DNA from: a virus
Lineage: Duplodnaviria; Caudoviricetes
Virus record (IMG/VR): IMGVR_UViG_3300009705_000015
Span: 1,016 to 65,015 of that record
Length of the DNA stretch: 64,000 nt
Direction: 5' to 3' (one strand)
Part shown: in pieces, positions 18,942 through 47,719 of the stretch
Numbering within the stretch: the stretch's first letter is position 1
Layout: each line of letters opens with the position of its first letter
Position numbers and translations under genes: made by a program
The notes under the pieces: generated by a model
Database searches by the model: none
What the model saw: only the letters and a program-made list of their open reading frames with translations
Told to the model about the DNA's origin: nothing

Positions 18942-19053
18942 TTGTCTATACCCTCTGTGCTGACCCACCTCGTTGTAGTATATCAAACCCATTGATATTA
19001 CTCACCATTGATACACCGGCACATTGATATAGTGGTGGTGCGTGGTGTGGTTT

Positions 19054-19210
19054 GTAGCAGACAACCACCACCTGCGAGCGAAATCGACGAAGCGCATTGA
19101 GCGCAGACTCCTAAGCCGCCTGTGGGGTCGGCTGCTACAATTCCAGACCAGCGCACCGGCAAACCACAGGCGACGGCTTAGTGGGGAGTTCACGAGGTTG
19201 GCTGGGAATC
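19054..19210 (+). ncRNA. candidate structured ncRNA, about 155 nt
   Basis: Triple ATTGATA promoter (18991/19007/19023) with no ATG at +30; CTAAGCCG/CGGCTTAG, CCTGTGG/CCACAGG and GTAGCAG/CTGCTAC pairings. Confidence 0.6.
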
Positions 19211-19254
19211 CTTTTCACCAATCCATAAAAAACCCCAGCGCCAATGTTATTGGT

Positions 19255-20169
19255 ATGGGCGACGATGAGGTTGATTTAACAGAACTGTCAGCCCGTGCTG
19301 AATTGCTTGCAGAAGCATCTGGGAGAGATGCCAAAGCGGTTCTCGCCGATTTGCTCGACGACGGTGAGATGAATTGGTCGAATGAAAAACAAGGAGTCTT
19401 GGATAGGGCTAATGAGCAAGCCAAGAAGTTCAAGGCTCTCCTTATGACTCTCATTCCCATCATTGCTCTTGTCATAGGCGGAGGGGGTCTGGAGATGCTT
19501 GGAATCGACTTGATGGGTTCGGATGATATAGACGAAGCAGAACGTCAAGACGAGCCTGTAATCACCATATTCTGGGGCTGTATGGATTCGACCGCCGAGA
19601 ATTACGATTCAATGGCCAATGAGGATGATGGCTCGTGCCAATATCCACCACCACCACCGCCTCCACCAGAACCAATCTATGGTTGCACGGACCCAGCAGC
19701 AAACAATTACAATGAGACAGCAACAGATGATGATGGTTCATGTGAATATGACTCATATCAAAATCCAGATAACGGCACTGAATCTGGCAATGAATCTGGC
19801 AATGAAACCGAACCAGCCTGCAATTTATCAGCACTATTCTATCATAGTGAAATCATCTGGACAGAAGAGGACAACAAAACATTGGCAACGGTTCGATGGG
19901 ATGCCGATTTGAACTGCGACCTGACTCACCATATCGAAGTCGATATAACCATCAAGAATGAATCTGGAGATGTTGTTCGCTCAATTTTCACCGGCTACAA
20001 TACAACATATCAAGACCCAGATTGGAAAACATGGACTTGGGATGGTGCGATAACAAACGAAACCTATTCGTTTTGCCTTAGCATTTGGCTTGAGAAGGAT
20101 GGCGAATGGTTCAATACAGATGAAACCAAACATGAAAATCAAATTGCCAAAGTTCCTGAATCGGAATAA
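19255..20169 (+). CDS. membrane-anchored surface protein with GC(T/M)D..A.NY...A..DDGSC repeats
   Basis: One TM helix, two Cys-bounded repeats, poly-Pro linker, beta-rich C-terminus with N-x-T/S sequons. Confidence 0.75.
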   Translation: MGDDEVDLTELSARAELLAEASGRDAKAVLADLLDDGEMNWSNEKQGVLDRANEQAKKFKALLMTLIPIIALVIGGGGLEMLGIDLMGSDDIDEAERQDEPVITIFWGCMDSTAENYDSMANEDDGSCQYPPPPPPPPEPIYGCTDPAANNYNETATDDDGSCEYDSYQNPDNGTESGNESGNETEPACNLSALFYHSEIIWTEEDNKTLATVRWDADLNCDLTHHIEVDITIKNESGDVVRSIFTGYNTTYQDPDWKTWTWDGAITNETYSFCLSIWLEKDGEWFNTDETKHENQIAKVPESE

Positions 20170-20212
20170 TACACGACTATTGTATTAAACCCCAGCCGAT
20201 TCACCAATGGAT

Positions 20213-20425
20213 ATGGAAATCGAAACCATTCTCTTAATCGCAACCGCCGTAGCAATACCAACAGGGCTTTGGCTCAAAGAGCGATACACACGTTTGATGG
20301 CCGATGGTAAAATCACACTTGATGAAGTCATAGGTGAAATCAAAGCAATCGGAGATAAAGCAGAAGAAGTCAAAGCAGAAGTCGAAGAGATAGTCGAGTC
20401 AGATGGTGAGGCTGTTGTCGAATAA
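20213..20425 (+). CDS. small membrane protein (holin-like)
   Basis: N-terminal TM helix, DGKITLDE, acidic tail. Confidence 0.55.
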   Translation: MEIETILLIATAVAIPTGLWLKERYTRLMADGKITLDEVIGEIKAIGDKAEEVKAEVEEIVESDGEAVVE

Positions 20426-20924
20426 GAAGGGAATGTCCTTCAACGACCGCCTGATGCTTCTGGTGGGAGTTCCTGTCGTGCTGGCATGGATGGGCTTCGC
20501 CTGTCTTGTCATTTGGTATGGTCTGCATTCATCTGCAGTTCTTGTCAACATCAAGGATTATACAACCCTCATAGCCATCATTGGTGGACCCGCTTTGCTC
20601 ATCCTCACATCTATTCTTGAACTGTGGAAAAACGAACAGAATCAAGAGATTGGTTCGATGCCAGAGTATTGGGAACATCAAAACACCGATATTCAAAATC
20701 AGGCCGCACATCTCCGAATGGTCGAAACCAAAAACCAGCAGCACGAGCAGATTCTCGAAGCAGAGCGACAGGCTGTGGCATTGGGTCTTATTGGCCTCGA
20801 TACGGACCCAGCAGCAGAACGTGGAGAAGAGGCTAATTCTCAAACCATCGAAAATCCAACCGTTGACGAATTGGATGCAATCGACGAATTGGAATCGCTT
20901 GACATCGAGAACTTGTCAGAATAA
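20415..20924 (+). CDS. two-TM membrane protein
   Basis: Two hydrophobic segments then a coiled/acidic tail; start uncertain. Confidence 0.6.
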   Translation: MSNKKGMSFNDRLMLLVGVPVVLAWMGFACLVIWYGLHSSAVLVNIKDYTTLIAIIGGPALLILTSILELWKNEQNQEIGSMPEYWEHQNTDIQNQAAHLRMVETKNQQHEQILEAERQAVALGLIGLDTDPAAERGEEANSQTIENPTVDELDAIDELESLDIENLSE

Positions 20925-20939
20925 AATTGAGATGATATT

Positions 20940-21221
20940 ATGCCGAATCCTGAAATCGACAACAACCATTTATTCCAATGGACCCAAGCGATTCACAGGG
21001 ATTTATCCAACCTGCGTGATAATCACTTGGCTCATATTGCTGACGACTTGACGACCCTGAAACATGATGTGGCTCGGCTCAAAATTGATGTTGTTGAACT
21101 GAAAGAGATTAAAATTGATGTGCTTGCTGTGATTCGCAGATATTCGAGGCGAGCGATTCTATTCATACTTGCAGGTGTCGCCGCTGGTTTGGGTGTTCCT
21201 GAATTGGTGGGGTTGTTTTGA
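20940..21221 (+). CDS. coiled-coil plus C-terminal TM protein (holin-like architecture)
   Basis: NHLAHI coiled coil followed by AILFILAGVAAGLG. Confidence 0.55.
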   Translation: MPNPEIDNNHLFQWTQAIHRDLSNLRDNHLAHIADDLTTLKHDVARLKIDVVELKEIKIDVLAVIRRYSRRAILFILAGVAAGLGVPELVGLF

Positions 21222-21354
21222 CCATCACCTCACCAATTAGACCTGATGATTGCCCTCCTGACGTTCACGATTGCCTCAAGAACAAAACACGCCTTGCCGA
21301 TATGTGCATCAAGTGTCTTGTTCACCAAGCATCTCTCTGGGGGCGACCATACTA

Positions 21355-21501
21355 ATGCCTCTCGTCTTGGCCAAGTGTCCGGCCTGTGGCCATGAAAAGT
21401 GGACTCGCTCGAACCGACCTAAGTGTGGTTCAAATCAATGCGGGAGACCGCATGGAAACATGAAAATAGTTCAGACCGATAGCAAGCCCAATTGGGATTG
21501 A
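21355..21501 (+). CDS. small Zn-finger protein
   Basis: CPACGH...CGSNQC. Confidence 0.5.
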   Translation: MPLVLAKCPACGHEKWTRSNRPKCGSNQCGRPHGNMKIVQTDSKPNWD

Positions 21502-21562
21502 TATGTTCATCGAAATAATTTGCCGATTCGCTATGCGCTATCGACAATGGAGATTCAAGAAG

Positions 21563-21812
21563 TGAACCCAACCGCCCCATCCCCCGATATTAGCGGAGGC
21601 GAGCGACGAGACTGCCTTAGACCATCCTCCAATTCCCGCACAGATTGTTTGCTTTGGGTCTCTTATGTGAGGTGGCCGTCATGTTTGGCGACGGTCAGGT
21701 TCTGGCAGAGACGAACACTACAACACCTCGACACTTCGCATCTCCCATCCATCCACGCCTGTTGCTCGGATTTCAGTTCTTGCGCCTGTGGGTTGGTCGG
21801 GTTGTTCGCCTC
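21563..21812 (-). ncRNA. candidate structured ncRNA, about 250 nt
   Basis: Minus-strand class A promoter (21835-21862), no ATG at +30; 5' AACCCGACC pairs with 3' GGTTGGGTT; GAGGCGAAC/GTTCGTCTC; CCGTC/GACGG hairpin. Confidence 0.6.
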
Positions 21813-22046
21813 TATTCTGATGCTGGAGATGATACTATATCAATTGTTCGGTCTATCAATGTTGAATATCACAATAGCAATGTTCTTATACTCGTGGCCT
21901 CACCCATAGATTGTCGGGGAACAGCGACAATTCTCACAAACGGCACTCTCGAGAATCGGGAGGGTGTGGACTGCGTGGACTGAACAAATCAATTCTCACG
22001 TTCTCAATTGCCAATGCAATTAAACCATGAGGCGCAACCACCAATC

Positions 22047-24473
22047 ATGTCCGAGCGAAAGCGCAGCATCCGTGAGCGTGTTTTTGGCCGTCAAAGAACC
22101 GATGCGCCCGACCCTGCTGATGTTCAACGATTCACCGATTTGGTGAATGAAGCGAACCAGCCTGAATCTGGATTGCTTTGGGATGGCAAGGCTTTGGCAT
22201 CAATGTCAAGAATCGGTCAAGCCACCAAGAAGGGGCGAGCAGCAGAAGGCAGCGGAACTGATACGCTGGTGTCATATTCCCTCTTGAGAGATATTTCATT
22301 GAAGTCAGAAGTCGTCAATGCTATCCTCCGCAGAACTGTCGATGATTGTCTGGGGAATGGATATGAGTTCATCCTCCCCGTTGGCGAAGAGACCGGAGAT
22401 GCTGACCAATTGAAGAAGGCACGAGAATGGTTCAAGAATCCTAATCCTGACGATAATGGCAACGAATGGTTGGAATCCCTCATCTATGATTTGGCTTTGT
22501 TCGGAGATGCCTATCTGGAACTCGATGGGTCCGAAGACAAGAACACGGGTGGCAAAGGTGTCAAGTGGACATATGGAGGCGACCTCGTGAGCGTATGGCC
22601 TATCCCATCTGAACAAATGACTCTCCTTGCTGGCAATCGACGACCAGCCCCACCAAGAATGGCATATGAGCAAAAACTGAATGGCGAGACTCGTCAATTC
22701 TCATCTGACAAAGTGCTTCACATATCGAAGTTCAAACACGACCGAGCGTATGGAACATCTCCGCTTATCTCTTTATTGAACGTAATTTCAGGACACATGA
22801 ATCTGTCAAATTATCTCAACGAACTCTATACAGGAACTCTCCCCAAGACCATCCTGAATGTTGGCGATATATCCAACGGCGAGATGAAAGCAATGCTCGC
22901 TCTCCTTGAACAACAATTGACCGGAGGCAAATCGCCATTCGGTCTGGTCGCCGTCAATGGTGGAACGGGATTCAATATGCACCGAGTTCTCGATTCAACC
23001 CGTGAAGGGGCGCAATTGGATTTGCTCTATTACTATCGTGAAGAGATATGTGCTGTGTTTGGAATCCCACCGATGAAATTGGGCTGGGTTCAGACAGGCA
23101 AAATGTCGAATCCCGAACAGCAATTGGATGCGTGGTATGATGTGATTGAATCATTCCATCGTCGAATTGAAGCCGTCATTAACAATCGACTTCTCCCCTT
23201 GCTGGGAATCACCGATTGGCAATTCGATTTCATCACAGTTCGCCCAAGCCGTGAGAAGGAACTTGCTGAAACCCGCAAGGCCGAATCATTGGCAATCAGC
23301 CATTTGCGACAGGAGAGCATAGTCAGCATCAATGAAGGCCGTATGATGCTCGGTCTTGAACGTCTAAGCGAGCCAGAAGCCGACGACCCATTCTTTTTAT
23401 CTCCAAAGTTATCCATTAACATGGGTGCGGAGGATTCTGCGGAGGAAAATCCAACAACACCTCCATCTCTTGAAGAATTATTCCCTCCCGATTCAACACC
23501 AGATGGTGAAGGAAAATATGCTGGCGAGCATCCAGCAATGACCGATATCCATCCAGCACCAGAACTATCAAATGATATTCGGCTCGATATGGGTTCTCGA
23601 AGAGTCAAAGCATCTGGCGAATATGAATCGCTCATCAGCAATTCCCAGACTTTGCTCGATGCAACATTTGAAGACAATCAACAAACATTCGCAACCGATG
23701 TTCTCGCCAGCCTGAATGATTTGTTCGCAGCAGGAGATGAAGCGGTTGAGATTCCCGATATTGAAATCGACATACCTGTGAAGTCATATCGTCGCAAGGC
23801 AAAAATCAATCTCGACGACATCGAAGTCGCATTTGGCCGTATTGATGCCAATATCGCAACAACGCTGGAAAAGCAAATTGTCGAGGCTGAACTCTTGCTG
23901 ACTACAACGTATGGAGAATCTCTGGGATTGACTCTTGCACCGACCGGAATGGCGAGCGCATTGATGGCCGACGACATTGCTGCTATTGCATTCTGGCGAA
24001 GGAGATGGGTCATACCAGCCCTTCGCCGAACTCTTGGCTCACATAGGGCTAATATCACCACCGTCTTTGAACAGATGGTTGGAGAAGGCCAATCGTGGAA
24101 ATGGGCTTCTGGCCGAATGAAAGAACTCATTGACCCATCTGGTTCAAAATATCCAAAATACTTTTACAATCGAATCGCTCGAACCGAGACTCGTCGAGTC
24201 GTTGAGAACTCCCACATTTCAGGATTGCGCCGAGCCGGATTCAAATATGTTGAGCGACTCGTTGAAATCGACACCCAAACCGACAAGGATTTATGTGCGC
24301 CGTATGAAGGTGCTGTGTATAAAATCGAAGACTCGAACTCCGTGATTCCAGCCCATCCAAATTGCCGTTGCACGTTCGTTGCACGAGATGGAGAACCTGC
24401 TTCGACCGTGCCAGCATCAGATGTGTTGGTTCCAGCAATTGAAACCCTCCCAGAGCGTGAAGGTGGCAATTGA
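22047..24473 (+). CDS. portal protein fused to a MuF/SPP1 gp7-like head morphogenesis domain
   Basis: L.LFGDAY, YGTSP, ICAVFGIPP and SINEGR..LGL portal motifs; RIARTE and PAHPNCRC MuF motifs. Confidence 0.9.
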   Translation: MSERKRSIRERVFGRQRTDAPDPADVQRFTDLVNEANQPESGLLWDGKALASMSRIGQATKKGRAAEGSGTDTLVSYSLLRDISLKSEVVNAILRRTVDDCLGNGYEFILPVGEETGDADQLKKAREWFKNPNPDDNGNEWLESLIYDLALFGDAYLELDGSEDKNTGGKGVKWTYGGDLVSVWPIPSEQMTLLAGNRRPAPPRMAYEQKLNGETRQFSSDKVLHISKFKHDRAYGTSPLISLLNVISGHMNLSNYLNELYTGTLPKTILNVGDISNGEMKAMLALLEQQLTGGKSPFGLVAVNGGTGFNMHRVLDSTREGAQLDLLYYYREEICAVFGIPPMKLGWVQTGKMSNPEQQLDAWYDVIESFHRRIEAVINNRLLPLLGITDWQFDFITVRPSREKELAETRKAESLAISHLRQESIVSINEGRMMLGLERLSEPEADDPFFLSPKLSINMGAEDSAEENPTTPPSLEELFPPDSTPDGEGKYAGEHPAMTDIHPAPELSNDIRLDMGSRRVKASGEYESLISNSQTLLDATFEDNQQTFATDVLASLNDLFAAGDEAVEIPDIEIDIPVKSYRRKAKINLDDIEVAFGRIDANIATTLEKQIVEAELLLTTTYGESLGLTLAPTGMASALMADDIAAIAFWRRRWVIPALRRTLGSHRANITTVFEQMVGEGQSWKWASGRMKELIDPSGSKYPKYFYNRIARTETRRVVENSHISGLRRAGFKYVERLVEIDTQTDKDLCAPYEGAVYKIEDSNSVIPAHPNCRCTFVARDGEPASTVPASDVLVPAIETLPEREGGN

Positions 24474-24877
24474 TGAGCAAGAGCAAGGCAATGAATCTGG
24501 CGAGGATGCTCAAGGCGAGAACCGCCATTGCTCTCGGCTCTATGTCGATTACAGGAACAACCATGCCGAGCGCACTTGACAAGGTGGCTCATTTGATTCT
24601 TGGAGAAGCCAAAAAGTTAGCACCTGTCGAGACGGGTGCATTGAGAGCATCCGGTCGGGTTGTTCGTGTTAATCAATATCAACGCATCGTGCAATTCGGT
24701 GGGTCCGGTTCTGGTGTGAACTACGCACAGGCTGTGGAGTTCGGAACCATGAGGCAACGACCTCAACCATTCTTATATCCAGCCGTGATGAAGAACAAGA
24801 AGGCAATCAAAGGTCTCATCATCAACGATGTGAACAAGTCATTGAGCCGTGTGGCCAGAATGGGGTCAAGCAAATGA
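24473..24877 (+). CDS. HK97 gp10-like neck/tail completion protein
   Basis: APVETGALRAS, YA..VEFGT..RPQPFLYPA. Confidence 0.85.
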   Translation: MSKSKAMNLARMLKARTAIALGSMSITGTTMPSALDKVAHLILGEAKKLAPVETGALRASGRVVRVNQYQRIVQFGGSGSGVNYAQAVEFGTMRQRPQPFLYPAVMKNKKAIKGLIINDVNKSLSRVARMGSSK

Positions 24878-24937
24878 CGAGCATTGCTGGCCGTGATGCT
24901 GACCACCGCTGGTGCAGACAATCCAAAGTGTGGATTC

Positions 24938-25171
24938 TCAAGCGACTATCGAATCAGAGCCGCAAGAAGCCGCCATTGAATAAGACCCAAAGGGCATGAA
25001 GTATTCGCTGTCGTCAAAATGACTTTGCTTGATTACTCGGCGACACATAACGCCGTCGATTGTTGTCCAGATTGAACCAGCGGTTCGGCGTTCAACGGTG
25101 AAATACCAATGGCATTCTGAATCGCAAACGGAGGTTGCTCGGTATGTTTGGCCTGCTGTGAATTGGGTCAT
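24938..25171 (-). CDS. small hypothetical protein (class A cassette)
   Basis: MTQFTAGQTY...; minus-strand promoter at 25193-25222. Confidence 0.65.
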   Translation of the reverse strand: MTQFTAGQTYRATSVCDSECHWYFTVERRTAGSIWTTIDGVMCRRVIKQSHFDDSEYFMPFGSYSMAASCGSDSIVA

Positions 25172-25249
25172 ATCTAATGCTACACCTCCGAGTATATCAA
25201 TGCTTTGGCAATCACAATGTTTAAGTATCTCATTGCTTTGGGATAGGGG

Positions 25250-25750: not shown

Positions 25751-25791
25751 TACGCCAAAGGATTGATAAGGGGCAACCCACAGGGGTGTAT

Positions 25792-26091: not shown

Positions 26092-26144
26092 ATCCACCAG
26101 ACCAAACAGAAGGGTGATAACCCCCCTCGCTCAACCATTGAGGC

Positions 26145-27713: not shown

Positions 27714-27747
27714 ATCACAGTCCAAAGGGCAATAAATAAAAACGGAG

Positions 27748-28815: not shown

Positions 28816-28824
28816 TTCTGATTA

Positions 28825-28881: not shown

Positions 28882-28913
28882 CGTGATAAACCATGAAGGA
28901 TAAGGGATAGATA

Positions 28914-30420: not shown

Positions 30421-30424
30421 GACT

Positions 30425-31228: not shown

Positions 31229-31543
31229 ATGAGCGCAATTAGCCCCTCTATCAAGCAATACCTGTGGACTGACATCTATGGCCAAGAAGTGTATGAAGAC
31301 GATTTGGTGGCATCATACCACCAAATATATGCAAAGGATTCCTATTTATTAGGAACTCTTGAAGCAATCGAACAAGACTATGCCGGATGCCCTTGCGGTG
31401 AACCACACCTTCGCATTGCAGTTATTCAAGAAGTCTCCAACGGTGTTCCAACAACCCTCCCAGAAGCAGACCGATACTTTGCATATCCATCATGTGTTCC
31501 AATCGAGCAAGGTGGGGCAGTTATCTCACTTCTCAAAATCTGA
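31229..31543 (+). CDS. hypothetical protein (class A cassette)
   Basis: cattgatattccgatatgttgatatag then ATG at +30. Confidence 0.65.
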   Translation: MSAISPSIKQYLWTDIYGQEVYEDDLVASYHQIYAKDSYLLGTLEAIEQDYAGCPCGEPHLRIAVIQEVSNGVPTTLPEADRYFAYPSCVPIEQGGAVISLLKI

Positions 31544-31585
31544 ATCGGGCAATTCTTTAAGAATAGTCGGTGCTGACTATCGTTT

Positions 31586-31666
31586 GCACCGGCACACCTC
31601 CCAATTGGGCGGCGAAGGGGTCGGTGCGAGGTGTTTGGTAATTCCTCTCTTAACCCTTCGTCGCCC
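31586..31666 (+). ncRNA. candidate small pseudoknotted RNA
   Basis: 13-bp stem 31607-31619/31654-31666; its loop is complementary to 31586-31600; TTTAAG box 30 nt upstream. Confidence 0.45.
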
Positions 31667-31706
31667 ACCTCTCATTCTTAACCCCAGCACAGCACACTTA
31701 GATATC

Positions 31707-32411
31707 GTGCCGATTAAGGACCCAATCAAACGGGCTGCATATTCCAAAGCATATCATAAGAGATGGTATGAGCAAAATAAGAACAATCGAGTCAAAGAAG
31801 TCGCCGTCAGGAAAAAGAGCATCCGTGAATGGATGAGGCTGCTTAAAGAGAGCCTGTTTTGTTCCAGATGTGGACTAAGTGGCAAAGACAACGCTTGGGC
31901 TATGGAGTTCCACCACCAAGACCCAACGAAGAAAGAATCTCTTGTATCTGGGATGGTGTCTGGTGGATATGCAAAGGCTCGAATCATGGAGGAGATTGAG
32001 AAGTGTGATGTGGTGTGTGCATCGTGCCATCGCAAAGAACACTATCAAGAGCATCAGCAATCGCTCGAAGACGGAACTGAATCAATTTGGACTGCAGCAG
32101 GTAAATCTGGGGCGAAGTTCGAGGTGCATGGAAACGACGATATGACAAGGAACAAGAAGCGAAGGCGCAAGCGAAGGCAACAACGATTGCGAGAGGCACG
32201 AGGCACGAACAACAATTCGGGTCCGCAAAGAATGAACAAAGACGATATCGACACCATGTTATTCAAAATGGAAAATGGTGCGAAGTTATCCAAATCAGAA
32301 GTGAAGAGATTCAGAATGCTGATTGGTCGAGAGCAGGCTGGATTAGAAGTCGAAGGCGATTGCGAACATATTGAGTTCGATACCAACATAAACCGAGAAC
32401 GTGAATCGTGA
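31707..32411 (+). CDS. HNH endonuclease-like protein
   Basis: CSRCG...EFHHQDP..K...EIEKCDVVCASCH; GTG start after a TTAACCCC promoter. Confidence 0.8.
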   Translation: MPIKDPIKRAAYSKAYHKRWYEQNKNNRVKEVAVRKKSIREWMRLLKESLFCSRCGLSGKDNAWAMEFHHQDPTKKESLVSGMVSGGYAKARIMEEIEKCDVVCASCHRKEHYQEHQQSLEDGTESIWTAAGKSGAKFEVHGNDDMTRNKKRRRKRRQQRLREARGTNNNSGPQRMNKDDIDTMLFKMENGAKLSKSEVKRFRMLIGREQAGLEVEGDCEHIEFDTNINRERES

Positions 32412-36363: not shown

Positions 36364-36374
36364 GGTGATTTAGA

Positions 36375-36737: not shown

Positions 36738-36907
36738 CGACCTTCGCAAAATCGAGCGAAGGCCAATTCTATTTTCATCTATTTTCACACTTAGGAATCA
36801 CGCCACAGGATTGGCGTGAACTCGACCCACGAGATGCTGCATTCTTGGCGAATGCTTTTGTTCAAATGAATGAGAATAAGGCACGACAACAAAGGAGGTC
36901 TCGTTGA
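36728..36907 (+). CDS. -1 frameshift extension of the tail chaperone (gpGT-like)
   Basis: Slippery GGGGGAA at 36728-36734; the -1 frame is open to 36907 (LGITPQDWRELDP). Confidence 0.7.
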   Translation, partial: GGMTTFAKSSEGQFYFHLFSHLGITPQDWRELDPRDAAFLANAFVQMNENKARQQRRSR

Positions 36908-39177
36908 TGTCTAATGACATGAATCTCAAGGTTGTTCTCGATGCTCAAACCGGCGGGTTCAGCAAAGGAATGAAATCAATGCAGCAAGGCTTGTCTGCAT
37001 CCGGCGGCTCTATGGCGAAGTTCTCAAGTATGGCCAAAATGGGATTCGTTGCGATTGGTGTTGCGGCTGCTGCGGCGGGTGCAATGATTCTCACATCATT
37101 CATCATCAAGGCGACCAAGCAATTCATCGAGTTCGAGGAGACGATGATTAAGACGGCGGCAATCATGGGTAAAACCGGCATGGATGAACTGCCAAAATTA
37201 ACTTCTGAAATTAAGCAATTGGGTGCTGAAACCAAGACGACAACCCAAGAGGTTGCAGAAGCAGCACAGATTCTTGCTCTCGCAGGTCTGGGCGAATCGG
37301 AGATGGTTGATGATGGCGCACTTCGCAACCTCAACAACCTCGCAATCGCAGCAGGAATTACTCTCCCAGAAGCGGCGGCTGTCGCAATCTCAACCCTCAA
37401 GGGAATGCAAATGGAAACCAGCGAACTGCGAAAAGTCAATGATATTCTGCTCAATACGCTCTCCAGCACGTTCACCGATATCACATCTCTCGGAGAAGCA
37501 ATGAAGTTCCTCGCCCCAACCGCTTCTGCGGCTGGAGTTAGTCTTGAAGAAGCGGCTGCGGCGGCTGGTATTCTTGGGAACGCCGGACTCAAAGGTTCGA
37601 TGGCTGGAACAGGCTTGCGTATGATGATAACCAAATTGCTCAAGCCAACAGAAGCGGCTCGAATCCAGATGGAAAAATTGGCACTTGACATATTCACATT
37701 GACTCCTGCTGGTGCGGCGGCGAAGGCTTCTTTAGGTAGTGTCAGACGAACATTGGATGCGGCCAAAATGTCTGCAGAAGCCACGAATGCTCAAATGACA
37801 GCACTTAACGAAGTGTTGTCGGATTTGTCGATTGAGCAACAAACCAATAGCCTCGCCATAATGAAAATCAAGAGGCGAGCCGAGAAGGAGGGTCGTGAAT
37901 TAAGCAAACGTGAAGTCGAACAAATCGACAGGCTGGAAAATGCAAATGACGATTTGAATATCACTATGGCCGAGCGCAGAATCGAGCAACAAATCGTTGG
38001 CGCACAGCAGAAAAAGACCAACGCAACCATCTCCGAACAAGCGAAAGAATACTCCAATTTGAACAAAACCGTCAGTGAGCAAACAACAGGAATCACGAGC
38101 CTTTCCGATGTGTTCCATCAATTAGAAGCGGCTGGCGCAACAACCTCCCAGATGCTTGCTATATTCGGTGTTCGTGGTGGAACGGCGGCGAATGCTTTGC
38201 TCGCCAATGTTGATGCTATGGATGAACTCACAGGTGCAAACAAATCGGCTCAAGAAGGGCTTGGATTGACGGCGGAGATGGTTGATGTGATGGGAACATC
38301 AACCTCATATGCTTTGGCAACATTGAACTCGGAATGGAAAGCATTCATGCTTCAAATCGGTGAAGAGTTCGCACCCATGTTGGTTGCAGAAGTCATACCG
38401 GCTCTGCGAGAATTGATTGCATCGTTGTTGCCATTGGTTCCAACATTTGCAGAATTGGCGGTGTCTTTGGGTGAGGTTCTCCCTCCGATAATAGAAGCGT
38501 TGATTCCGATACTCACCAATTTGGGAACTATCCTTAAATTGCTTGCACCATTCATCACCCTAATCGGCTACGCTATGGAGTTATGGTTCTTGTTCATGGA
38601 ACCTGTGTTTGGTTTGGTTGGAGATTTATCGCAAGCACTTATTGACCTTATGAATGGCGACTTTGAAGGATTCATTGGGAGTATCGCATCGGCATTTGGA
38701 AATCTGATTCTGGTTCTCAATCCTGTGTATAGAATGTTGACGGCAATCGCCGAGATGCTCAACGATACAGCAATTGGAGAAGCGGCTGATGATGCAGGGT
38801 TTAATCTCGGCTCGGCGGCTGCGGGCGCAGGTGTTGGATTCGCCGTTGGTGGACCCGTTGGTGCTGCAATCGGAGGTGCGGTCGGTGGATTCTTCTTTGC
38901 TGATGGTGGAATTGTTGACAAGCCAACATTGGGAATCGTTGGAGAGGCCGGACCCGAAGCCGTTATTCCCCTCAATAAATTGGATGGCATCATTGCCAAT
39001 TCCAGCAAGCACGATTCAGCATCCTCTTCACCATCATCATCTCTGACCATCAATGGTGGAATCCACATCGGCGCAGGGAATAACCTCAATAAGCGAGATG
39101 TGAAGTCTGCAATTGAGCAAGTTCTCCCGTCGATGTTATCGGCTGGAACAAGGTCTGGCGCACGGGGGGTTATTTGA
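36907..39177 (+). CDS. tape measure protein (TP901-like core)
   Basis: LGEAMKFLAP.A...G.SLEE.AA..G.L.N.G.KGS.AGTGLR; FADGGIV..PT..GEAGPEAVIPL. Confidence 0.93.
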   Translation: MSNDMNLKVVLDAQTGGFSKGMKSMQQGLSASGGSMAKFSSMAKMGFVAIGVAAAAAGAMILTSFIIKATKQFIEFEETMIKTAAIMGKTGMDELPKLTSEIKQLGAETKTTTQEVAEAAQILALAGLGESEMVDDGALRNLNNLAIAAGITLPEAAAVAISTLKGMQMETSELRKVNDILLNTLSSTFTDITSLGEAMKFLAPTASAAGVSLEEAAAAAGILGNAGLKGSMAGTGLRMMITKLLKPTEAARIQMEKLALDIFTLTPAGAAAKASLGSVRRTLDAAKMSAEATNAQMTALNEVLSDLSIEQQTNSLAIMKIKRRAEKEGRELSKREVEQIDRLENANDDLNITMAERRIEQQIVGAQQKKTNATISEQAKEYSNLNKTVSEQTTGITSLSDVFHQLEAAGATTSQMLAIFGVRGGTAANALLANVDAMDELTGANKSAQEGLGLTAEMVDVMGTSTSYALATLNSEWKAFMLQIGEEFAPMLVAEVIPALRELIASLLPLVPTFAELAVSLGEVLPPIIEALIPILTNLGTILKLLAPFITLIGYAMELWFLFMEPVFGLVGDLSQALIDLMNGDFEGFIGSIASAFGNLILVLNPVYRMLTAIAEMLNDTAIGEAADDAGFNLGSAAAGAGVGFAVGGPVGAAIGGAVGGFFFADGGIVDKPTLGIVGEAGPEAVIPLNKLDGIIANSSKHDSASSSPSSSLTINGGIHIGAGNNLNKRDVKSAIEQVLPSMLSAGTRSGARGVI

Positions 39178-42100: not shown

Positions 42101-44141
42101 CCAAACCGACCGCATGACTCTAATTGAGTTCGATACGGGCGCACCCTCAATGTATCATGGCAGACACGCATTCACGACTCGTGGAACTGCAATGGCAGAG
42201 TCAATGAGAAGTGGATTCTTGCCTCGAAGTCAAGGTGGTTCAAGTTCCAACAGACCCGAATGGACTTCTTGGGAGTCGATGATTATTAACTCACAGGTCA
42301 GCCAACACATTGGGAACACAGAACTGTTCATCTGGGGCGGCTCGAAGACCTTTGACTCAACCGGATTCGATGCGGCTGCATGGAAAAACACCCTCACCAA
42401 TCCAGCCAATGGATGGATATTCAATTCGGCAATGGGGTCAAACAATGTTGGATGGGGCAATATGTCTAATGGATATGGAACAGGCACACCCACCACCATT
42501 TCAGAAGGTTATCACACTATCCGAACAACATTCGATGAAGAGGGAATGCTTCTCAACATTGATGGCACTACAATCGGCAAAGACTTGAACGTGAACAATC
42601 CGGTTTGGGGCTTCGCCATTCAAATGTCGAATGCCGGTGGTGCTGGCGCACGGGCTTCAACCTCACCAATCATTGACCCAAATAATTACTATCTATTCCC
42701 ATCAGGGATGGCATACAATAAGAGCCAAGCCGATTTGCAGATTGATGAAATGGTTGTTCGTCAAATACCATCTCTCCCAATGACACCATTCCCCGTTGAT
42801 ACAATTACGCAGCAGGTTGCTGGGGTTGGAAAATACACAGCACTATCTATCGAGGCCGATAACATTTCAGTCAACGCTGGAATGAACGTGAGAGTCTCAA
42901 TTTGTCCGGTGTCGGCAAATGTCGGCGGTCGTGAGATTGAAGGAGGAACTCCATACACCGGATTCAGCAACATGGATTGCGGCTTCGTTGGTGGATATGG
43001 CTCTGTCGATTTATCCACCTTGCCAGCCGATGCAATCACCAATGGATTCGTTATCCGATTCCTGTTTTTCACCCCAACCGCTTCTGACCCATCCCTCCAG
43101 CCTGTGAATTGGTCTTCGACACCAATAGTTCGAGCATGGACTTTGGAATATGACCTATCTCCGACATCAACAATTGCTTGCACGGGCAACACATTCAACG
43201 GCGACACCGTTGCACCAATCGACACGAAGGTCGGACACATAGTATCATTTAGAGGAACTGCAACCACCACCGATATTGACAGAACAATGTCGTCAGTTCG
43301 ATTCAATTTTGGAGATGGCGTGTCAACCGATTGGTTGCCATTCACCGACCAAACCCTTCAAAGCAACACATTCGATACGGCTCATTCTTATCTGACAACA
43401 GGAACTTATTCAGCAACACTTGAAGTCAGAGATGATGTTGGGAATCTCGCCACATCAGCGGCCTTGAGCGTGGTTGTTGCCAATGCACCTCCGGTCGCAA
43501 TCCTCCGTGCTGTGCCTTCTTTGGTTCGTGCTGGAGATGTTTGCACTTTGGATGCAACCGATTCATTCGATGTCAATGCCGGTGGCTCTTTGACCTCATA
43601 TACATTCGACTTTGGAGATGGCTCTGGAACAATCACGCAAGGCACACCAACGGCTCAACATACATATGCGGCGGCTGGTGAGTATCGAGCGACTCTCACA
43701 GTTCTGGATGCAGATTCGGCGGTATCTCAAACAGCATCGTCGATTGTCAAGTGTTTGCCAGCAACCCTCATTGTTCCATTAGTCTTCAACACCAAACCAA
43801 GAGCATTCAATCGCACACGCTCGGCGGAGATTGGCATGACTCCGGTTCTTGATGCGGTCTATCCTGAAATGACCGATACGGGCAATCGGTCAGATACGTT
43901 CTCATTGTCTGGAATGTTTTTGAAATCGACAGCCAATTCCGATATAGGATTCGTCGAAGAATTACTGCTGACGGGCGCACTTGTTGAGTTCCTGTATGAG
44001 AATGTTGACTATGTTGGCAACCCATCTGGCAAAGTATTCACAGGGCGAATCACTTCATTCGATTATGAACGTCAAGGCGGCGAACATGGCCAAACCCCAT
44101 ACACGATAACTTTGGTTCGAGAAGCCGGACTTGGAGTATGA
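39177..44141 (+). CDS. large tail protein with C-terminal PKD domains
   Basis: Follows the tape measure gene; FNFGDG and FDFGDG...HTY...GEY.ATLTV PKD motifs. Confidence 0.8.
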   Translation: MASTTQKITFVYSRQKNGLCEVQRWWPAYIKNDGVGGLTVDPVLFRSTFGPDTIADEGRGLMDEANTAGLRVEMIGFDGSAPSGTPSLEIIGSGTLDARCVLTHEDGTKTEWRFIGPSADGILATGSAGYGASDRHRAMSMNDGMNPATLASSGPYPVFATMQDFADWLDGYVNHGFGAYVAGFDENAASYSFLPAGLIEPDTSAWPPANADPRQDAANKAAIPTSSKMCATIFMPLLLDNNQMRDSQSGNTATSDIVKGQWDGATIETGAGNSGAYFNFYDEGMTRYDQSPNREGGAVIYKQLGNSGDHKPAKVGSYHTTDPTYNPDNIDDFINNDSDPSSSAYGGPSYRMRTALACFLKDGTYLLTGGSFIPYIYDPARTIGGSNGNTCYAVWNGDKGIANTPAEILAVDTDEMSSAQIFPLTEFVQGPLCSGAQGWNWDADVDGLTTYMNWIYYTQEQTDLKAQYDTTTYSGQTRPNSCTKIGQPRQGLVRPNPIRAKIYAAEQIGTTNATGLAGITTGECKGVLKVWIEKMGTKSVHVPSGMPVNLDFLGLMDGTKDIVGNNDVQYMIGTNTPKVGATENYQLGDTGTAATTGTLLGVSRSGWWIPSISTTLTAVNKSTIVAGATGTFTGVLLEFYINQEVDLPDIASYEEGGWACQGLMGGAEVQYGTGTYTTGSWPYQPLNDPTNGTLGGTGQKYSPNAKNKYNIPAAQFDGKNALPFYSFPTGLGWNAGWNQAGQNVPTAAGHDYRHPTVAVNSPQATWVSDFSGYQDDQQITPRGLSIVAADDSRYLMTPTAQGIGGGMLRLPAPPNFGLADYYYSPTEVLHLDDGTNAPIYGDFSGYFAYGPLDVAAADSSIFKSDTTDARWRSKSMVMPLYSYMENRTGDSGFDKTLPSSWRVGRNRPYPIHERIGTKGGYGPLSGLNYWAINNANAAHSSNRPQVGEETIMTGLAEIGCSPIWLDLTIRAWWPTQTDRMTLIEFDTGAPSMYHGRHAFTTRGTAMAESMRSGFLPRSQGGSSSNRPEWTSWESMIINSQVSQHIGNTELFIWGGSKTFDSTGFDAAAWKNTLTNPANGWIFNSAMGSNNVGWGNMSNGYGTGTPTTISEGYHTIRTTFDEEGMLLNIDGTTIGKDLNVNNPVWGFAIQMSNAGGAGARASTSPIIDPNNYYLFPSGMAYNKSQADLQIDEMVVRQIPSLPMTPFPVDTITQQVAGVGKYTALSIEADNISVNAGMNVRVSICPVSANVGGREIEGGTPYTGFSNMDCGFVGGYGSVDLSTLPADAITNGFVIRFLFFTPTASDPSLQPVNWSSTPIVRAWTLEYDLSPTSTIACTGNTFNGDTVAPIDTKVGHIVSFRGTATTTDIDRTMSSVRFNFGDGVSTDWLPFTDQTLQSNTFDTAHSYLTTGTYSATLEVRDDVGNLATSAALSVVVANAPPVAILRAVPSLVRAGDVCTLDATDSFDVNAGGSLTSYTFDFGDGSGTITQGTPTAQHTYAAAGEYRATLTVLDADSAVSQTASSIVKCLPATLIVPLVFNTKPRAFNRTRSAEIGMTPVLDAVYPEMTDTGNRSDTFSLSGMFLKSTANSDIGFVEELLLTGALVEFLYENVDYVGNPSGKVFTGRITSFDYERQGGEHGQTPYTITLVREAGLGV

Positions 44142-44274
44142 TTATACGACCGATATTGACTCCAATACATCGGAATATCAATACGAACTTCGAGAGTATA
44201 TGAACTCCGCAAAAAAGAACCTAAGTATTGATATACCGACACATTGATATAGTCGAGGCTACACCATTCAAATT

Positions 44275-44696
44275 GTCCGAGCATCCAGCCGAACACCCGA
44301 CTCCCCCAAAGCGGGGCTGAGAACGGTGGGAGTCTGGCGGCTAAGACCGATGCGCCTCCGCATGAAAAGTGCGGGGGATAAAATTGGAAACGAGAGCGAT
44401 TAGAGTCCTCAAGCCTTGAGCCTCCAGAGTCTCCCAAGCAGGTTAAAATGTGCGGGATTACGGCATGGTAGCAAGACAGGATTAGTGTCCACCCTTTGGC
44501 GAGGGTGGTTGGGTATATGATTTGTTTGCGAATATCAGATATTCACAGAACGCACCGACTTCACCTATTTACACGGTGATGTCGATTGTCAGTATGTGTT
44601 TGCTCTCGTTCCCCTGCCTGTCAGAAAGAGTATCGGCGCACTACGCCAAGTGTGTCGAGAGGGTATCTGGCAAGGGTGGGCGCATCGGTTTGGGCT
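44275..44696 (+). ncRNA. candidate large structured ncRNA, about 420 nt
   Basis: Class A promoter 44227-44253 with no ATG at +30; long-range helices 44344-44356/44679-44691 and 44389-44398/44601-44610; several local hairpins. Confidence 0.7.
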
Positions 44697-44752
44697 TCTT
44701 ATTCCATTGATATTACCAAAGCATTGATAAGGGGGAACTGCCAGCGTTGGAT

Positions 44753-45097
44753 ATGACCCAACAGTCAAAGCCAACCAGCCTAAAAGACCGAATGACCAAA
44801 ATGGGGCAAAATAGCCTTTATCCTAATCACATCATCCACCCGATGATGCCAACGGATGCAACCCCTTTGATGCAGAAAATGGTTGAGAACTTTTGCTCTT
44901 ATAATGATACATGGGTCAGCACCCACATGGATAGAGACTTTCTCCTTAGCCTAAACAAATCGCAATACCAATCTCACCGCAATGGCTACAACGCCTCTCC
45001 TGAACAAAGCGAAGCAATCAACGCTCTCGTTGCAGCAGAAGTCTTTGAACTCAATACCACATACAAGCCGGTTCTTATCCTCATCAATTGGGTTTAA
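44753..45097 (+). CDS. hypothetical protein (class A cassette)
   Basis: cattgatattaccaaagcattgataaggggg then ATG at +29. Confidence 0.65.
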   Translation: MTQQSKPTSLKDRMTKMGQNSLYPNHIIHPMMPTDATPLMQKMVENFCSYNDTWVSTHMDRDFLLSLNKSQYQSHRNGYNASPEQSEAINALVAAEVFELNTTYKPVLILINWV

Positions 45098-45141
45098 TCA
45101 AAAGCGAATCCGTGATAAGCCCCAAGCGTTCCACTTGAAGT

Positions 45142-46968
45142 GTGGTTGACGATAGCATAGAGCGATTCCACCGGCTGGTGCGGTCGCCAGAGGATGCGAT
45201 GGTGATTACACCACCTCAACCCCTTCTCGATGAGATAGAGCGTCTTGGACAAGACCCTCGCCGACCACGAACAGCAATTGCGAGATGGGCTTCAAGAATC
45301 TGGTTGGAACACGCTCACACGGCTCGGCTCGAAGGTATCTCCGATAATGAAATTGATTCCACGCATAGTGAAAAAGAATTGATGGAACGGCCATCTCATT
45401 ATCCTGATGATTGGGGTCTTGATTTGATTCCATTCCCATCCGACTTGGGCGGTTCATGGACACGAGATAAGACAACAACGCTCGCATACACCAGCCTCAC
45501 CACACCAAGACCATTCGACCCTCAATTGCATGGTGATGTTGGAACCAGCCCAGACCAAGCACTTGGGTTTGGATATAATTATCAAGGCAAATCGGGATTC
45601 CCAGACCAGCACGACATTGTTGCTCGTCGTGGCGGGGGTCCTCGTGGCGGATTCGCAATGACGACGGGTCCAACAGAAGGTGCATATCCCACAGCAATCC
45701 TCCCACAGCCCGTGTTCAATTTAGGGCGTCTGGGCTTCTCTAATGGAGGTTGGAATCCTGAAGGGCTACAATGGACAAACAGACCCAAGAGGATGCGCTT
45801 AGGAGGTCTTAGGAACGGCTGGGCGCATCGTGTGTTCTTCGCTCGCTCTCGTCGTGTGATGTTCCGCAATTTATTCGGTGCGATTTCAGAAGACGAAGCG
45901 ACTCCACTATGCCCGACCGTAGTGGTCAATGGAATGAATGACCTTCATGGAATACTATCGGTTTCAATGGACAAGACGTTCAATGCACCAACAATTTGCT
46001 CTATCGAAGTCAATAACCCATCTGGTCGTCGAACAGGAACTATCGTCGTTGGCGATACGATTCAGATTTATGCAGCACCGAGAACTTGGGCTGACCCTCC
46101 TTTGGTGTTCACCGGATATGTCTCCGAGATTAACGAATCGACAGAATCAATATCAGTTCGATGTTCAGATGCTCTCGGCTATCTCGGAATCGAAGTTATC
46201 AAATCCGAGCCTCATTATTATCAAACAGATGCGGCGACCGTTATCAAAGACTTCATTGCTAATTCAAATTATTCGCCACCAATCGGTCGGATATTGAATC
46301 AATCATTCGTTATCCTCCCAGCAGGCATTCTCTTTGCTGGAATGACAAGACTCAAAGCGGTGCAGGGGATATTGAACATCATCAACAGCACACCAAATCT
46401 CATTCAATTGTATTGCTCGCCAGATGGAATGATTTGTATGAAGCGGCTCAAAGAAGTTCACGATTCGACAACCATTCCGTATGTTGGAGGGCGACTCCCC
46501 AGAACTGCATCACCTCAAGACTTCTATGCTACGGGAATTGAACGTGAAAGCGGAGATTCAACGGGATTCAATGTGGTCGTGGTTAGCAATCCAAAATTGA
46601 ACATATTGGTCAGCATTCCGGTGAAGGGTTCACTTGCTTATCCAAACATTCCGGTTGAAAGAATTATCAAAGACGAGTCGATTATCAATGACAATCAAGC
46701 CAAAATGGTCGGGGAATATATGTTGAATACTCAAGGATTGGCGAAGACCAGATGGGTCGTTGAAGGAATCCCAGAGCGATTGGATATTGAAACCGGACAA
46801 ATCATGGAGTTCGCATCGGTTGAGGCGAGTCTTGCAGGGCGACAAAGGATATTCAATGTGTCTTGGCAAATCAGCCCAGCAATGTCAACCATGACTTTGA
46901 ATGTTGGCCGACAAGCACCAGACCTGCTCTCGACTTTGAAGTTCGCAGCAGGAATAAATCAGGGCTGA
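45142..46968 (+). CDS. baseplate hub / tail-tip protein (gpD/Tal-like C-terminal half)
   Basis: VFTGYV...VRCSD and hub-like architecture; position in the tail module. Confidence 0.6.
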   Translation: MVDDSIERFHRLVRSPEDAMVITPPQPLLDEIERLGQDPRRPRTAIARWASRIWLEHAHTARLEGISDNEIDSTHSEKELMERPSHYPDDWGLDLIPFPSDLGGSWTRDKTTTLAYTSLTTPRPFDPQLHGDVGTSPDQALGFGYNYQGKSGFPDQHDIVARRGGGPRGGFAMTTGPTEGAYPTAILPQPVFNLGRLGFSNGGWNPEGLQWTNRPKRMRLGGLRNGWAHRVFFARSRRVMFRNLFGAISEDEATPLCPTVVVNGMNDLHGILSVSMDKTFNAPTICSIEVNNPSGRRTGTIVVGDTIQIYAAPRTWADPPLVFTGYVSEINESTESISVRCSDALGYLGIEVIKSEPHYYQTDAATVIKDFIANSNYSPPIGRILNQSFVILPAGILFAGMTRLKAVQGILNIINSTPNLIQLYCSPDGMICMKRLKEVHDSTTIPYVGGRLPRTASPQDFYATGIERESGDSTGFNVVVVSNPKLNILVSIPVKGSLAYPNIPVERIIKDESIINDNQAKMVGEYMLNTQGLAKTRWVVEGIPERLDIETGQIMEFASVEASLAGRQRIFNVSWQISPAMSTMTLNVGRQAPDLLSTLKFAAGINQG

Positions 46969-47161
46969 TATTGGATTCGATATGAAAGTCGCTGATTTCA
47001 GCAACCCCCCAGCGGGTTGATGAAATGCAATTTGACGTTCTATTTGCCTGTCATATTGAACTCAATAGCATTGTCGATGTTTCAGGCTGGCTCGAAACGA
47101 CCGATTTCATTGCTGATTAAAGAACCAAAGCATTGATATAGTGGAATGCACACCGTTGTTT

Positions 47162-47665
47162 GTAGCCGGAACATCAGGCCACCGACGACCCTCGACAATA
47201 ACCGACCACTTTTGAGTCGGCTGGCGGGGATTATTTGAAACGCTACACACCTCAACATGGTGGATAGGGTGCGTGAGTCTCCTTCGAGGAGAACGGATGA
47301 AATAGCCACCTCCCAGATGTTGAGGCGTTCTAAAGACGAGCCTGTGCAGCACCTCGTGAACATCACTTGGTCAGACACCAGCGGAGAACTTAAAGTGGAA
47401 TTGGTTGAAAACCAATGAGAACGGGAGGCATGAGTCTTTCTCCCTCGTTTCAAATACATGGTGAGAATCTCTCCCTTAGCGGGGAGGGTCGTTGCCTTCA
47501 ACCGCACAGGGGGGAGGTCAATCAGAAACATCGAGTTCGTCTTTATTCGGGTGCAAACCGGAACTGAAAGGGTGGCGGGGGTGTGGGCGACAAGCGAAGA
47601 GTTCTATCAACCTCACCGATGATTTGGTTTAGCGACCATCTCATCGGTGCTGGTTGGCCACTTCA
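47162..47665 (+). ncRNA. candidate large structured ncRNA, about 500 nt
   Basis: Class A promoter at 47116-47142; nested helices 47183-93/47484-94, 47232-42/47446-56 (perfect 11 bp), 47250-58/47317-25, 47614-22/47641-49. Confidence 0.75.
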
Positions 47666-47719
47666 CCTTCTTTCATCCTTAGCAACAACCACTTAAAGCG
47701 GCGAGGATTACCATTTGAT

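Follow-up and report, generated by a model that had tools for sequence, protein, structure and literature searches.

The DNA analyzed here is a stretch of 64,000 nucleotides (nt) (the window; bases 1016-65015 of the 65,015-bp IMG/VR virus record IMGVR_UViG_3300009705_000015, window coordinates being genome-interval coordinates minus 1015) and represents the nearly complete genome of an uncultured marine tailed virus. At four places in it, a promoter of the type that precedes small leaderless accessory genes is followed by a non-coding stretch instead of a start codon, and a fifth such stretch stands behind a variant box; these units are referred to as g1, g2(-), g2(+), g3, and g4. Judged from the sequence, at least two of them seem to belong to a family of folded RNAs that had not been described so far; it is here named RNA-1 and recurs in related viruses. 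We see about an even chance that the units are stand-alone genes for structured viral non-coding RNAs (ncRNAs), driven by the TATA-type promoter of the accessory genes.

A promoter shared by leaderless genes and gaps without a start codon

Relatives of the virus were found only among uncultured marine viral contigs (IMG/VR) of up to ~82 kb, one of them with terminal repeats. We compared 42 loci around a 608-amino-acid (aa) gene and 80 loci around the terminase gene (labelled L), as well as four related whole genomes (G001, G002, G004, and G005) with portal identities of 55-77%.

The hexamer TTGATA occurs 103 times in the window versus 37.7 expected (standard deviation 6.0), a number reached in none of 100 shuffles, and 14 sites show the tandem arrangement TTGATA-N(10-11)-TTGATA with the boxes 16-17 nt apart. 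Its extended form, TTGATA(T/A)A, is a TATA-type box, usually with a second TTGATA upstream, and is referred to as the class-A box. Among the 24 extended boxes that were tabulated, four are the upstream member of a pair and 20 are proximal. An earlier note on this DNA had placed an ATG 28-32 nt after TTGATA, and the count agrees with it: 10 of the 20 proximal boxes have an ATG 23-24 nt after the hexamer, which corresponds to 29-30 nt from the start of TTGATA. Inspection of the sequence between box and ATG revealed neither a -10-like hexamer nor a consistent Shine-Dalgarno sequence. The same motif and spacing are present in all four related genomes; in G005, AAACCTTTATA ends 23 nt ahead of the ATG and has a TTGATA pair immediately upstream. 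A TATA-type box centred ~26 nt before a leaderless start is the geometry of archaeal promoters composed of a B recognition element (BRE) and a TATA box. On account of this spacing we accept a virus of archaea as an inference from promoter architecture rather than as a result. A second, A/T-rich box (class B; TTAAAC, TTAAAG, or ATAAAAAAC) stands 21-22 nt before the leaderless starts of several genes and is conserved in G001, G002, L001, and L002.

Four class-A boxes (19024, 21843(-), 44244, and 47133) lack an ATG in the interval 17-27 nt downstream, and none of the four opens an open reading frame (ORF) with an ATG 23-24 nt after the hexamer. They are the sites for which the earlier note had claimed the lack of a start codon. 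Its statement that two of them begin in the same context was likewise borne out, since TTTGTAGC occurs on the plus strand of the window only at 19051 and 47159. At the three plus-strand sites TTGT stands at offset 21-23 after the box, and in g1 and g4 the TTG at the predicted start is directly followed by TAG. No ORF conserved in the four related genomes was found within 18615-19254, 21496-22022, 44204-44702, or 46966-47676, and six-frame translation and tblastn of the gaps against 42 and then 80 more loci gave no conserved ORF or peptide. The conserved frame that the earlier note had set against conserved pairing is thus not seen, and one promoter type appears to serve both small leaderless genes and units without a start codon or conserved ORF, as it had proposed. 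It had also recognized no signature of a transfer RNA (tRNA), transfer-messenger RNA (tmRNA), RNase P, SRP, or intron in the gaps. Consistent with this, Rfam 15 models, which besides these families cover GOLLD, ROOL, pRNA, and C/D sRNAs, gave no match at the gathering score in the whole window and only two chance-level matches, both outside the gaps, at E <= 5 over 18900-47800; ARAGORN found no tRNA or tmRNA gene in the window. Closer relatives of the gaps were sought with blastn and nhmmer in the 42 loci, five whole genomes, and the 80 further loci, and the similarity was confined to promoter sequences and to ~24 nt at the start of g2(+).

Folding was expressed as z-scores against dinucleotide shuffles and compared with 45 coding windows of 250 nt from the same genome (mean z -0.53, standard deviation 1.0, lowest -2.71). 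Three units lie beyond all 45 controls, namely g1 (z -3.04, 19052-19254), g3 (-2.97, 44273-44522), and g4 (-5.0, 30 shuffles). Other values were -2.24 (19050-19260) and, in another fold run, -3.35 for g1; -2.09 (44270-44540) and -2.46 (first 126 nt) for g3; and -3.55 (47160-47660) for g4. Folding was strand-specific, with z -1.21 versus +1.39 on the other strand for g2(-) and -2.67 versus -1.19 for g4b. The highly folded RNAs suggested by the earlier note are therefore supported at three of its four sites but not at 21812(-), where z is -1.2 to -1.5.

RNA-1, a putative structured RNA family of related viruses

We searched IMG/VR for RNA-1 by exact patterns, which yielded 15 and then 21 stretches. 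A TATA-type box (TTGATATA, TTCATATA, TTTATATA, or TTCTTATA) 15-17 nt before (T)AG(A/T)TTGT served to define the start and is present in 18 distinct sequences, about 14 of them in this set by reading. A covariance model of the 5' module (R1) gave 14 matches of 67-96 bits in 49 loci, which reduce to ~10 distinct sequences.

These ~10 distinct IMG/VR sequences start with TAGATTGT or TAGTTTGT exactly 16 nt after the TATA box and share a module of ~75 nt in which 5'-UAGAUUGU is followed by hairpin P1, an unpaired ACCGAAG, hairpin P2 capped by a GNRA tetraloop, and then GAAUUGGAAAC. P1 (6-7 bp) directly follows TTGT and has an AACA-type loop, CCGAAG in the linker is invariant in all 10 seed sequences, and P2 consists of 9 bp (CCUCCCGA/UCGGGGGG) closed by GCGA or GAGA, with GAAUUGGAAAC behind it in most members. 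The body that follows is variable, 200-700 nt long, and rich in GNRA- and UUCG-capped hairpins and repeated hairpin modules; similarity beyond the 5' module is found only within lineages. On reading, the RNA that precedes the portal gene in G004 was seen to be homologous to the one that follows the hub gene in L002, and nhmmer links L002, G002/L040, L003, L005, and G004 over ~430-470 nt. The body in L081, L082, and L085 contains one to two copies of a ~45-nt hairpin module, GCAUACCGAGAAUCCC-loop-GGGCAAAGUUCUCGCUCCCUG, with the loops GAGA, AACA, and GUGCA.

The pairing of the 5' module was assessed in the 10 distinct sequences. Paired states were found in 96.7% of 150 cells, versus 37-69% in slid controls. 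Three pairs show two-sided changes versus 0.6 in shuffles (3 of 500 shuffles reach three), the covariation score is 0.201 versus 0.115 in shuffled alignments (none of 500 reach it), and RNAalifold recovered P1 and P2 unaided. In the alignment of the G004 lineage, the body stem CCAAUC/GGUUGG is changed to CCGUCG/CGACGG in L073. The RNAs of the relatives fold with z-scores of -2.6 to -9.2 in 8 of 10 cases. Since the indels in the family alignment are 2 and 3 nt long, no reading frame is kept, and no Rfam match at E <= 1 was obtained in eight relatives' loci carrying RNA-1.

RNA-1 lies upstream of the giant gene in the window, L001, L002, and L040 and upstream of the portal gene in G004, L073, L078, and L102. 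The RNA is inverted in L081, L082, and L085, where it is convergent with the homologue of the hub gene, divergent from a 666-aa gene, and followed by no gene. Two copies flank the hub gene in L021; positions 3999-4560 of this locus hold three successive TATA boxes, each followed by ~130-240 nt of non-coding DNA, the first of which is RNA-1. The second and third L021 units start with ACAGAG, like an internal unit of L081 and L082.

When metagenomes were scanned for the RNA-1 pattern, one locus was obtained, identical to L002 over the 800 nt compared. In genome contigs the pattern gave a single match, which lies in a contig of a metagenome-assembled genome labelled Beijerinckiaceae and was taken as chance because it has no P1, scores 16.6 bits, and is accompanied by no related proteins. 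No further copies were found near the terminase genes of 73 relatives' loci with R2, a version of R1 broadened with L001 and the second L021 copy (one match, E 0.83).

RNA-1-like features of the window units

The 5' domain of g4 (47156-47245) reads GTTTGT, P1, ACCGACG, P2 with a 30-nt insertion, and UUUGAAAC, where four of the six model pairs of P1 are standard and P2 is CCUCG/CGGGG. It has the box and start of RNA-1 at the defined spacing and is the top match of both R1 (12.8 bits, E 0.11; run without filters) and R2 (E 0.082) in the 128 kb of both strands; the R1 match starts 4 nt before TTGT, at the predicted start site. The unit is syntenic with the RNA-1 of L001, L002, and L040, in which the non-coding stretch before the giant gene measures ~350, 715, and 800 nt, respectively. 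A long-range helix UGUAGC/GCUACA is predicted in g4, and its 3' part has only the short words ACUGAAAG and CGGUGCUGG, in differing order, in common with other lineages. These features are suggestive of g4 being the counterpart of RNA-1 in the window.

The unit g2(+) is absent from the earlier note and uses TTCTTATA rather than TTGATA as its box. It starts at 21907 with the only TAGATTGT of the window. P1 (UUGUCG/CGACAA) pairs at six of six positions, ACAAACGG stands at the linker position, and P2 is CUCUCGA/UCGGGAG. The sequence 21907-21977 scores 8.4 bits with R1 (E 2.4, fifth) and 8.3 bits with R2 (E 2.6, sixth). Identity with L102 is 77% over 78 nt, and full-length RNA-1 of the G004 lineage occupies the same place before the portal gene.

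In g3, AAATTGT stands at the same offset after the box as the family start (T)AG(A/T)TTGT. An enlarged, branched first element takes the place of P1 and is followed by the linker ACCGAUG, a P2-like hairpin (CCUCCGCA/UGCGGGGG, loop GAAAA), and AAAAUUGGAAAC; a hairpin GUCCACCC/GGGUGG forms the 3' end. AATTGGAAAC occurs once in the window, at 44382. The segment 44330-44395 ranks fourth with R1 (9.5 bits, E 1.1) and second with R2 (10.1 bits, E 0.64).

The first 90 nt of g1 are closed by a 9-bp helix, UUGUAGCAG/CUGCUACAA, and a run of four T is located at ~19213. A TATA-type box precedes its (T)AG(A/T)TTGT start at 19048 by 15-17 nt, as in RNA-1. Beyond this, g1 has in common with the family only its start GTTTGTAGC, a loop of the CAAC type, and a stretch of CGACGAAG: a P1 of GCAG/CUGC is possible yet absent from the predicted fold, UCGACGAAG occupies the linker position, and P2 is absent. 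G001 has an ATG-less unit starting with TTAGCAGAGAACC at the same place after the terminase gene. We consider g1 a candidate that may be a functional RNA. For g2(-), which faces the 3' end of a small zinc-ribbon gene ending at 21501, no relative was found among the compared loci and genomes, and its interpretation as a structured RNA is weak.

Location adds weight to the matches of the window copies, which coincide with predicted start sites and with syntenic positions: the hub gene has g3 on one side and g4 on the other, like the two copies of L021, and g2(+) stands before the portal gene as RNA-1 does in G004, L073, L078, and L102. We consider membership of g4 and g2(+), and partly of g3, in RNA-1 as marginal and suggestive.

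Several observations weigh against reading the units as stand-alone structured RNAs. The window copies, with 12.8, 10.1, and 8.3 bits and E values of 0.08-2.6, are not significant alone; matches of 9.9 and 8.6-8.7 bits in coding regions rank among them, R2 gave no higher scores in the window than R1, and g1 matched neither model. Folding is no better than in coding controls for g2(+) (z -1.35), for g2(-) (z -1.53 and -1.21), and for the first 250 nt of g4 alone (z -0.99), and the same holds for the RNAs of L078 and L021 (z -0.8 and -1.5). The covariation is based on ~10 closely related sequences and three pairs, most pairs being invariant. In strains from two DNA runs, one substitution and three indels cluster at 44327-44333, the 3' strand of a predicted helix of g3, with no listed change on the partner strand. 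Contigs from four DNA runs over 44100-47800 contained near-identical strains only and thus no usable covariation. Near-identical DNA is present in marine and seawater metagenome runs, and none of the 20 runs listed with part of the stretch is an RNA run. The small protein genes found in the same slots of relatives and the open frames in gaps 1 and 4, discussed below, belong to the same side.

Taken together, the observation made in the earlier note proves largely right and its interpretation plausible, with the family as an anchor for g4, g2(+), and partly g3. Conserved pairing was found in the RNA-1 of the relatives. Positions of the units and of their promoters are given in Table 1.

Table 1. 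Promoters, candidate RNA units, and selected genes in the window.
Feature	Position	Strand	Remarks
Class-A promoter of g1	18992..19031	+	Three TTGATA boxes at 16-nt spacing; TTGATATA, the proximal box, is of the TATA type
Unit g1	19048..19220	+	~170 nt, non-coding, starts GTTTGTAGC
Class-A promoter of g2(-)	21836..21859	-	Two TTGATA boxes
Unit g2(-)	21505..21814	-	~300 nt, no start codon at leaderless distance
Variant TATA box TTCTTATA	21883..21890	+	16 nt before TAGATTGT; conserved in L102, L104, G001, G002
Unit g2(+)	21907..22015	+	Short RNA-1-like unit directly upstream of the portal promoter
Class-A promoter of g3	44228..44251	+	Two TTGATA boxes
Unit g3	44270..44522	+	~250 nt, starts AAATTGT
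Rest of gap 3	44523..44706	+	Short unconserved ORFs only; z -1.29, no excess folding
Class-A promoter of g4	47133..47140	+	Single box CATTGATATAG
Unit g4	47156..47680	+	~500 nt, flanked by the genes of the baseplate hub and the 2,300-aa protein
Class-B box ATAAAAAAC	19225..19257	+	21 nt before leaderless ATG 19255 of a conserved 304-aa gene
Class-B box	20185-20215		Before a 70-aa gene
Class-B box TTAAAC	22020..22049	+	21 nt before leaderless ATG 22047 of the portal gene
Class-B box CCACTTAAAGCGG	47693..47722	+	21 nt before GTG 47720; conserved in L001, L002
Proximal class-A boxes with ATG at 23-24 nt	2677, 3179, 15346, 15878, 25763, 44724, 57411, 60485, 25200(-), 55516(-)
Large terminase	17050-18615
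Portal protein	22047-24473
Tape-measure protein	36904-39177

Genome context and further elements

The GC content is 45-49% across the whole window. Besides the structural genes of Table 1, the genome encodes a prohead protease, a major capsid protein, and further tail proteins; an HNH endonuclease gene (31359-32411) lies within the structural module. A collagen-repeat protein is encoded at 4755-6614 and a 750-aa C-5 cytosine DNA methylase at 7244-9496. The host domain was also sought from proteins. Terminase and capsid searches returned only distant bacterial phages and two haloarchaeal viruses, and a protein atlas gave only the label 'Viruses'. A portal query by exact peptides had no match in IMG/VR, and the portal retrieved no genome contigs.

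The 608-aa protein encoded upstream of g4 (45142-46968) has no Pfam or PHROG match. In its predicted structure, the C-terminal ~350 residues match the baseplate-hub proteins gp27, gp44, and VgrG with E values down to 4e-17, and the matches include a tail chain of Haloferax tailed virus 1; the model is weak overall (mean predicted local distance difference test score, pLDDT, 59), residues 65-256 being of low confidence. By predicted fold this neighbour is a baseplate hub. It had been considered as an RNA-binding partner and was rejected as such because its confident C-terminal part has the baseplate-hub fold; the linkage of the RNAs to it thus reflects the tail module and not a recognizable RNA-binding partner. 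The giant ORF on the other side of g4 spans 47654-54631 (2,325 aa), and protein homology begins at ~47654-47720. The start is most likely GTG 47720 and not TTG 47654, since both the protein homology and the conserved upstream box point there.

Two arrangements of class-A boxes differ from those described above. At ~55441-55516 no gene follows the TTGATA pair; what comes next is CATCATTAG together with a G/C hairpin, AGCCCCCC/GGGGGGCT. This combination is also found after the hub gene in the distant relatives L022, L024, L025, and L034, there with a CACACA/TGTGTG palindrome next to it, and may be a terminator or a site acting at the DNA level. In G001 (L047), two ATG-less class-A promoters face each other at ~9472(+) and 9641(-) (reverse-complemented coordinates), ~170 nt apart, and would yield overlapping sense and antisense transcripts.

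Discussion

The arrangement described here would be explained if the host RNA polymerase transcribed the units from the promoter of the small leaderless accessory genes. The conserved single-stranded stretches of the 5' module could then be the handle by which a protein or a further nucleic acid recognizes the RNA, with the variable body as a stable scaffold, and the RNAs would act in trans, as a scaffold of a ribonucleoprotein or as a decoy, during the time in which class-A promoters are active. Transcription of the units, its termination ahead of the following gene, the stability of the RNAs, their action in trans, and the nature of any partner are inferences. Separate transcription units are favoured by the genes after g1, g2(+), and g4, each of which has its own box at leaderless distance, and by the triple boxes of L021.

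A different explanation, which we regard as unlikely, is that part of the units, in particular g2(-), g1, and the second half of gap 3, are cassettes that carry no working cargo, and that any transcripts from them are functionless. The class-A promoter would then be a module that is repeated and recombines, and the DNA behind it in this genome would be decayed or neutral. The slots of g1 and g2(-) in L102 and of g3 in L002, G002, and G001 are indeed occupied by small leaderless protein genes with the same promoter type, so that some window units could be cassettes that have lost their cargo, remnants, or neutral fillers. One and the same small Cys-rich gene stands before the portal gene in L102 (9436-9672(-)) and before the hub gene in G002 (L055 8425-8667), which indicates that promoter-plus-gene cassettes move. 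The promoter copies at 44701-44733 and 3156-3188 are 97% identical over 33 nt, and it is at exactly this place that contigs from three public runs are broken or forked. Moreover, g2(-) and 44523-44700 show no excess folding, and no relative was found for g1, g2(-), or the body of g3. However, no remnant of the relatives' genes is detectable in g2(-) or, by six-frame search, in any gap. When g2(-) was compared with the small L102/G002 gene as a possible decayed copy, the local DNA score was 20 versus a null of 17 +/- 2.2, and 67 of 500 shuffles reached 20; no significant protein frame was found in comparison with the L102 gene. The folding of g1, g3, and g4 beyond all coding controls and the family 5' architecture of g4, g3, and g2(+) also speak against cassettes without cargo, and compact viral genomes usually shed neutral DNA.

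It is quite unlikely, in our view, that the plus-strand units act in cis, be it as structured leaders, by occlusion of the late promoter, or through a polymerase modification by the 5' module like that of put and nut sites. In support of such an activity, g1, g2(+), and g4 each end just before the A/T box and leaderless start of a structural gene that shares their strand, RNA-1 is positioned upstream of the giant or the portal gene (window, L001, L002, and L040; G004, L073, L078, and L102), and the promoter-proximal 75 nt are the most conserved part. On the other hand, the inverted RNA of L081, L082, and L085 converges on the hub gene with nothing downstream and is thus not a leader, the next element after g3 is a further class-A promoter, g2(-) points towards the end of a gene, and the downstream genes have their own conserved boxes. 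By eye, and with no scan run, no Shine-Dalgarno-like stretch is seen before the portal ATG, and a weak GAGG is located 13 nt before the GTG of the giant gene; a long leader would probably be untranslated. Occlusion, finally, needs neither a conserved RNA structure nor a folded body of 200-700 nt.

It is very unlikely that the gaps encode small proteins, with TTG starts at TTGT, with the 50-aa ORF at 47415-47567, or as an N-terminal extension of the 304-aa protein. TTG occupies the position of the ATG in coding cassettes and opens ORFs of 36-75 aa in several family members, a TTAAAG box lies 19 nt upstream of ORF 47415, and a frame opening at GTG 19042 runs through gap 1 in phase into the 304-aa gene and is open over 19042-20169. 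Yet the TTG is directly followed by TAG in g1 and g4, the frames differ among family members owing to 2-nt indels, no peptide is conserved, and the 50-aa ORF is not conserved in any relative compared. The frame of the 304-aa gene is open for 71 codons upstream, but the distance from the box to GTG 19042 is just 12 nt, so that this codon precedes the predicted start site, and in G002 the homologue begins with an ATG equivalent to 19255 that has its own box; the open frame across g1 is probably due to chance. Elements acting at the DNA level, such as packaging, replication, or recombination sites, would suit gaps that adjoin terminase, portal, and tail genes and vary in length among relatives (~350-800 nt before the giant gene), but they are a most improbable explanation of a promoter at fixed spacing, strand-specific folding, and compensatory changes, among them G-U pairs, which make sense only in RNA.

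If the units are stand-alone RNA genes, they invite comparison with known systems. GOLLD and ROOL are large ornate RNAs, often phage-borne. The present RNAs resemble them in being virus-borne, several hundred nt long, built of tetraloop-capped helices, free of coding capacity, without an assigned function, and found by comparative genomics. Unlike them, RNA-1 has no Rfam 15 match, is conserved across lineages only in its first ~75 nt, occurs in several copies per genome, and has an archaeal-type promoter. The prohead (packaging) RNA (pRNA) of phi29 is a phage-encoded structured RNA with its own promoter, and the units here lie beside terminase, portal, and tail genes; in contrast to pRNA, however, they show no Rfam match, the virus has an ordinary large terminase, and the neighbour tested by fold is a baseplate hub. 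The put RNA of HK022 and the nut sites of lambda act in cis on bacterial RNA polymerase. They share with RNA-1 a promoter-proximal module of ~70 nt with two hairpins and conserved single-stranded linkers, located mostly upstream of long late genes. Their position at the 5' end of an operon transcript fits most RNA-1 lineages but not L081, L082, and L085, the lineage without a downstream gene, and in RNA-1 a large structured body follows the module. The leaderless accessory cassettes of the same virus group are identical to RNA-1 in promoter type and spacing, occupy the same slots, and turn over among relatives in the same way; they differ from RNA-1, which has TTGT in place of ATG, no conserved ORF, and a conserved RNA secondary structure.

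To our knowledge, virus-encoded structured RNAs are known mainly from bacteriophages. A full-text search of the literature found no paper on ncRNAs of marine archaeal tailed viruses. A word search of the founding magrovirus paper found none of the words promoter, TATA, non-coding, and intergenic there, and the ICTV profile of one Poseidoniales virus family describes protein genes only.

The promoter grammar itself, in which a TTGATA-type TATA box goes with a leaderless start and late genes are preceded by another A/T box, allows gene starts and expression classes of this uncultured virus group to be read straight from the sequence. Should the units be real RNAs, they would constitute a family of ~10 distinct members, with a 5' module and a covariance model already defined, which is open to searches of ocean metatranscriptomes, to chemical probing, and to imaging. 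More tentatively, and with considerable doubt, a clade of marine tailed viruses that are probably archaeal may possess an undescribed class of large multi-copy structured RNAs, each joining a two-hairpin 5' handle that is conserved to an ornate body that evolves fast, and expressed from the accessory-gene promoter beside portal, baseplate-hub, and fibre genes. Such RNAs would be the first large ornate RNAs of archaeal viruses, with a standing like that of GOLLD, ROOL, and the phi29 pRNA, and might serve virion assembly as a component or chaperone or act as decoys for host defence.

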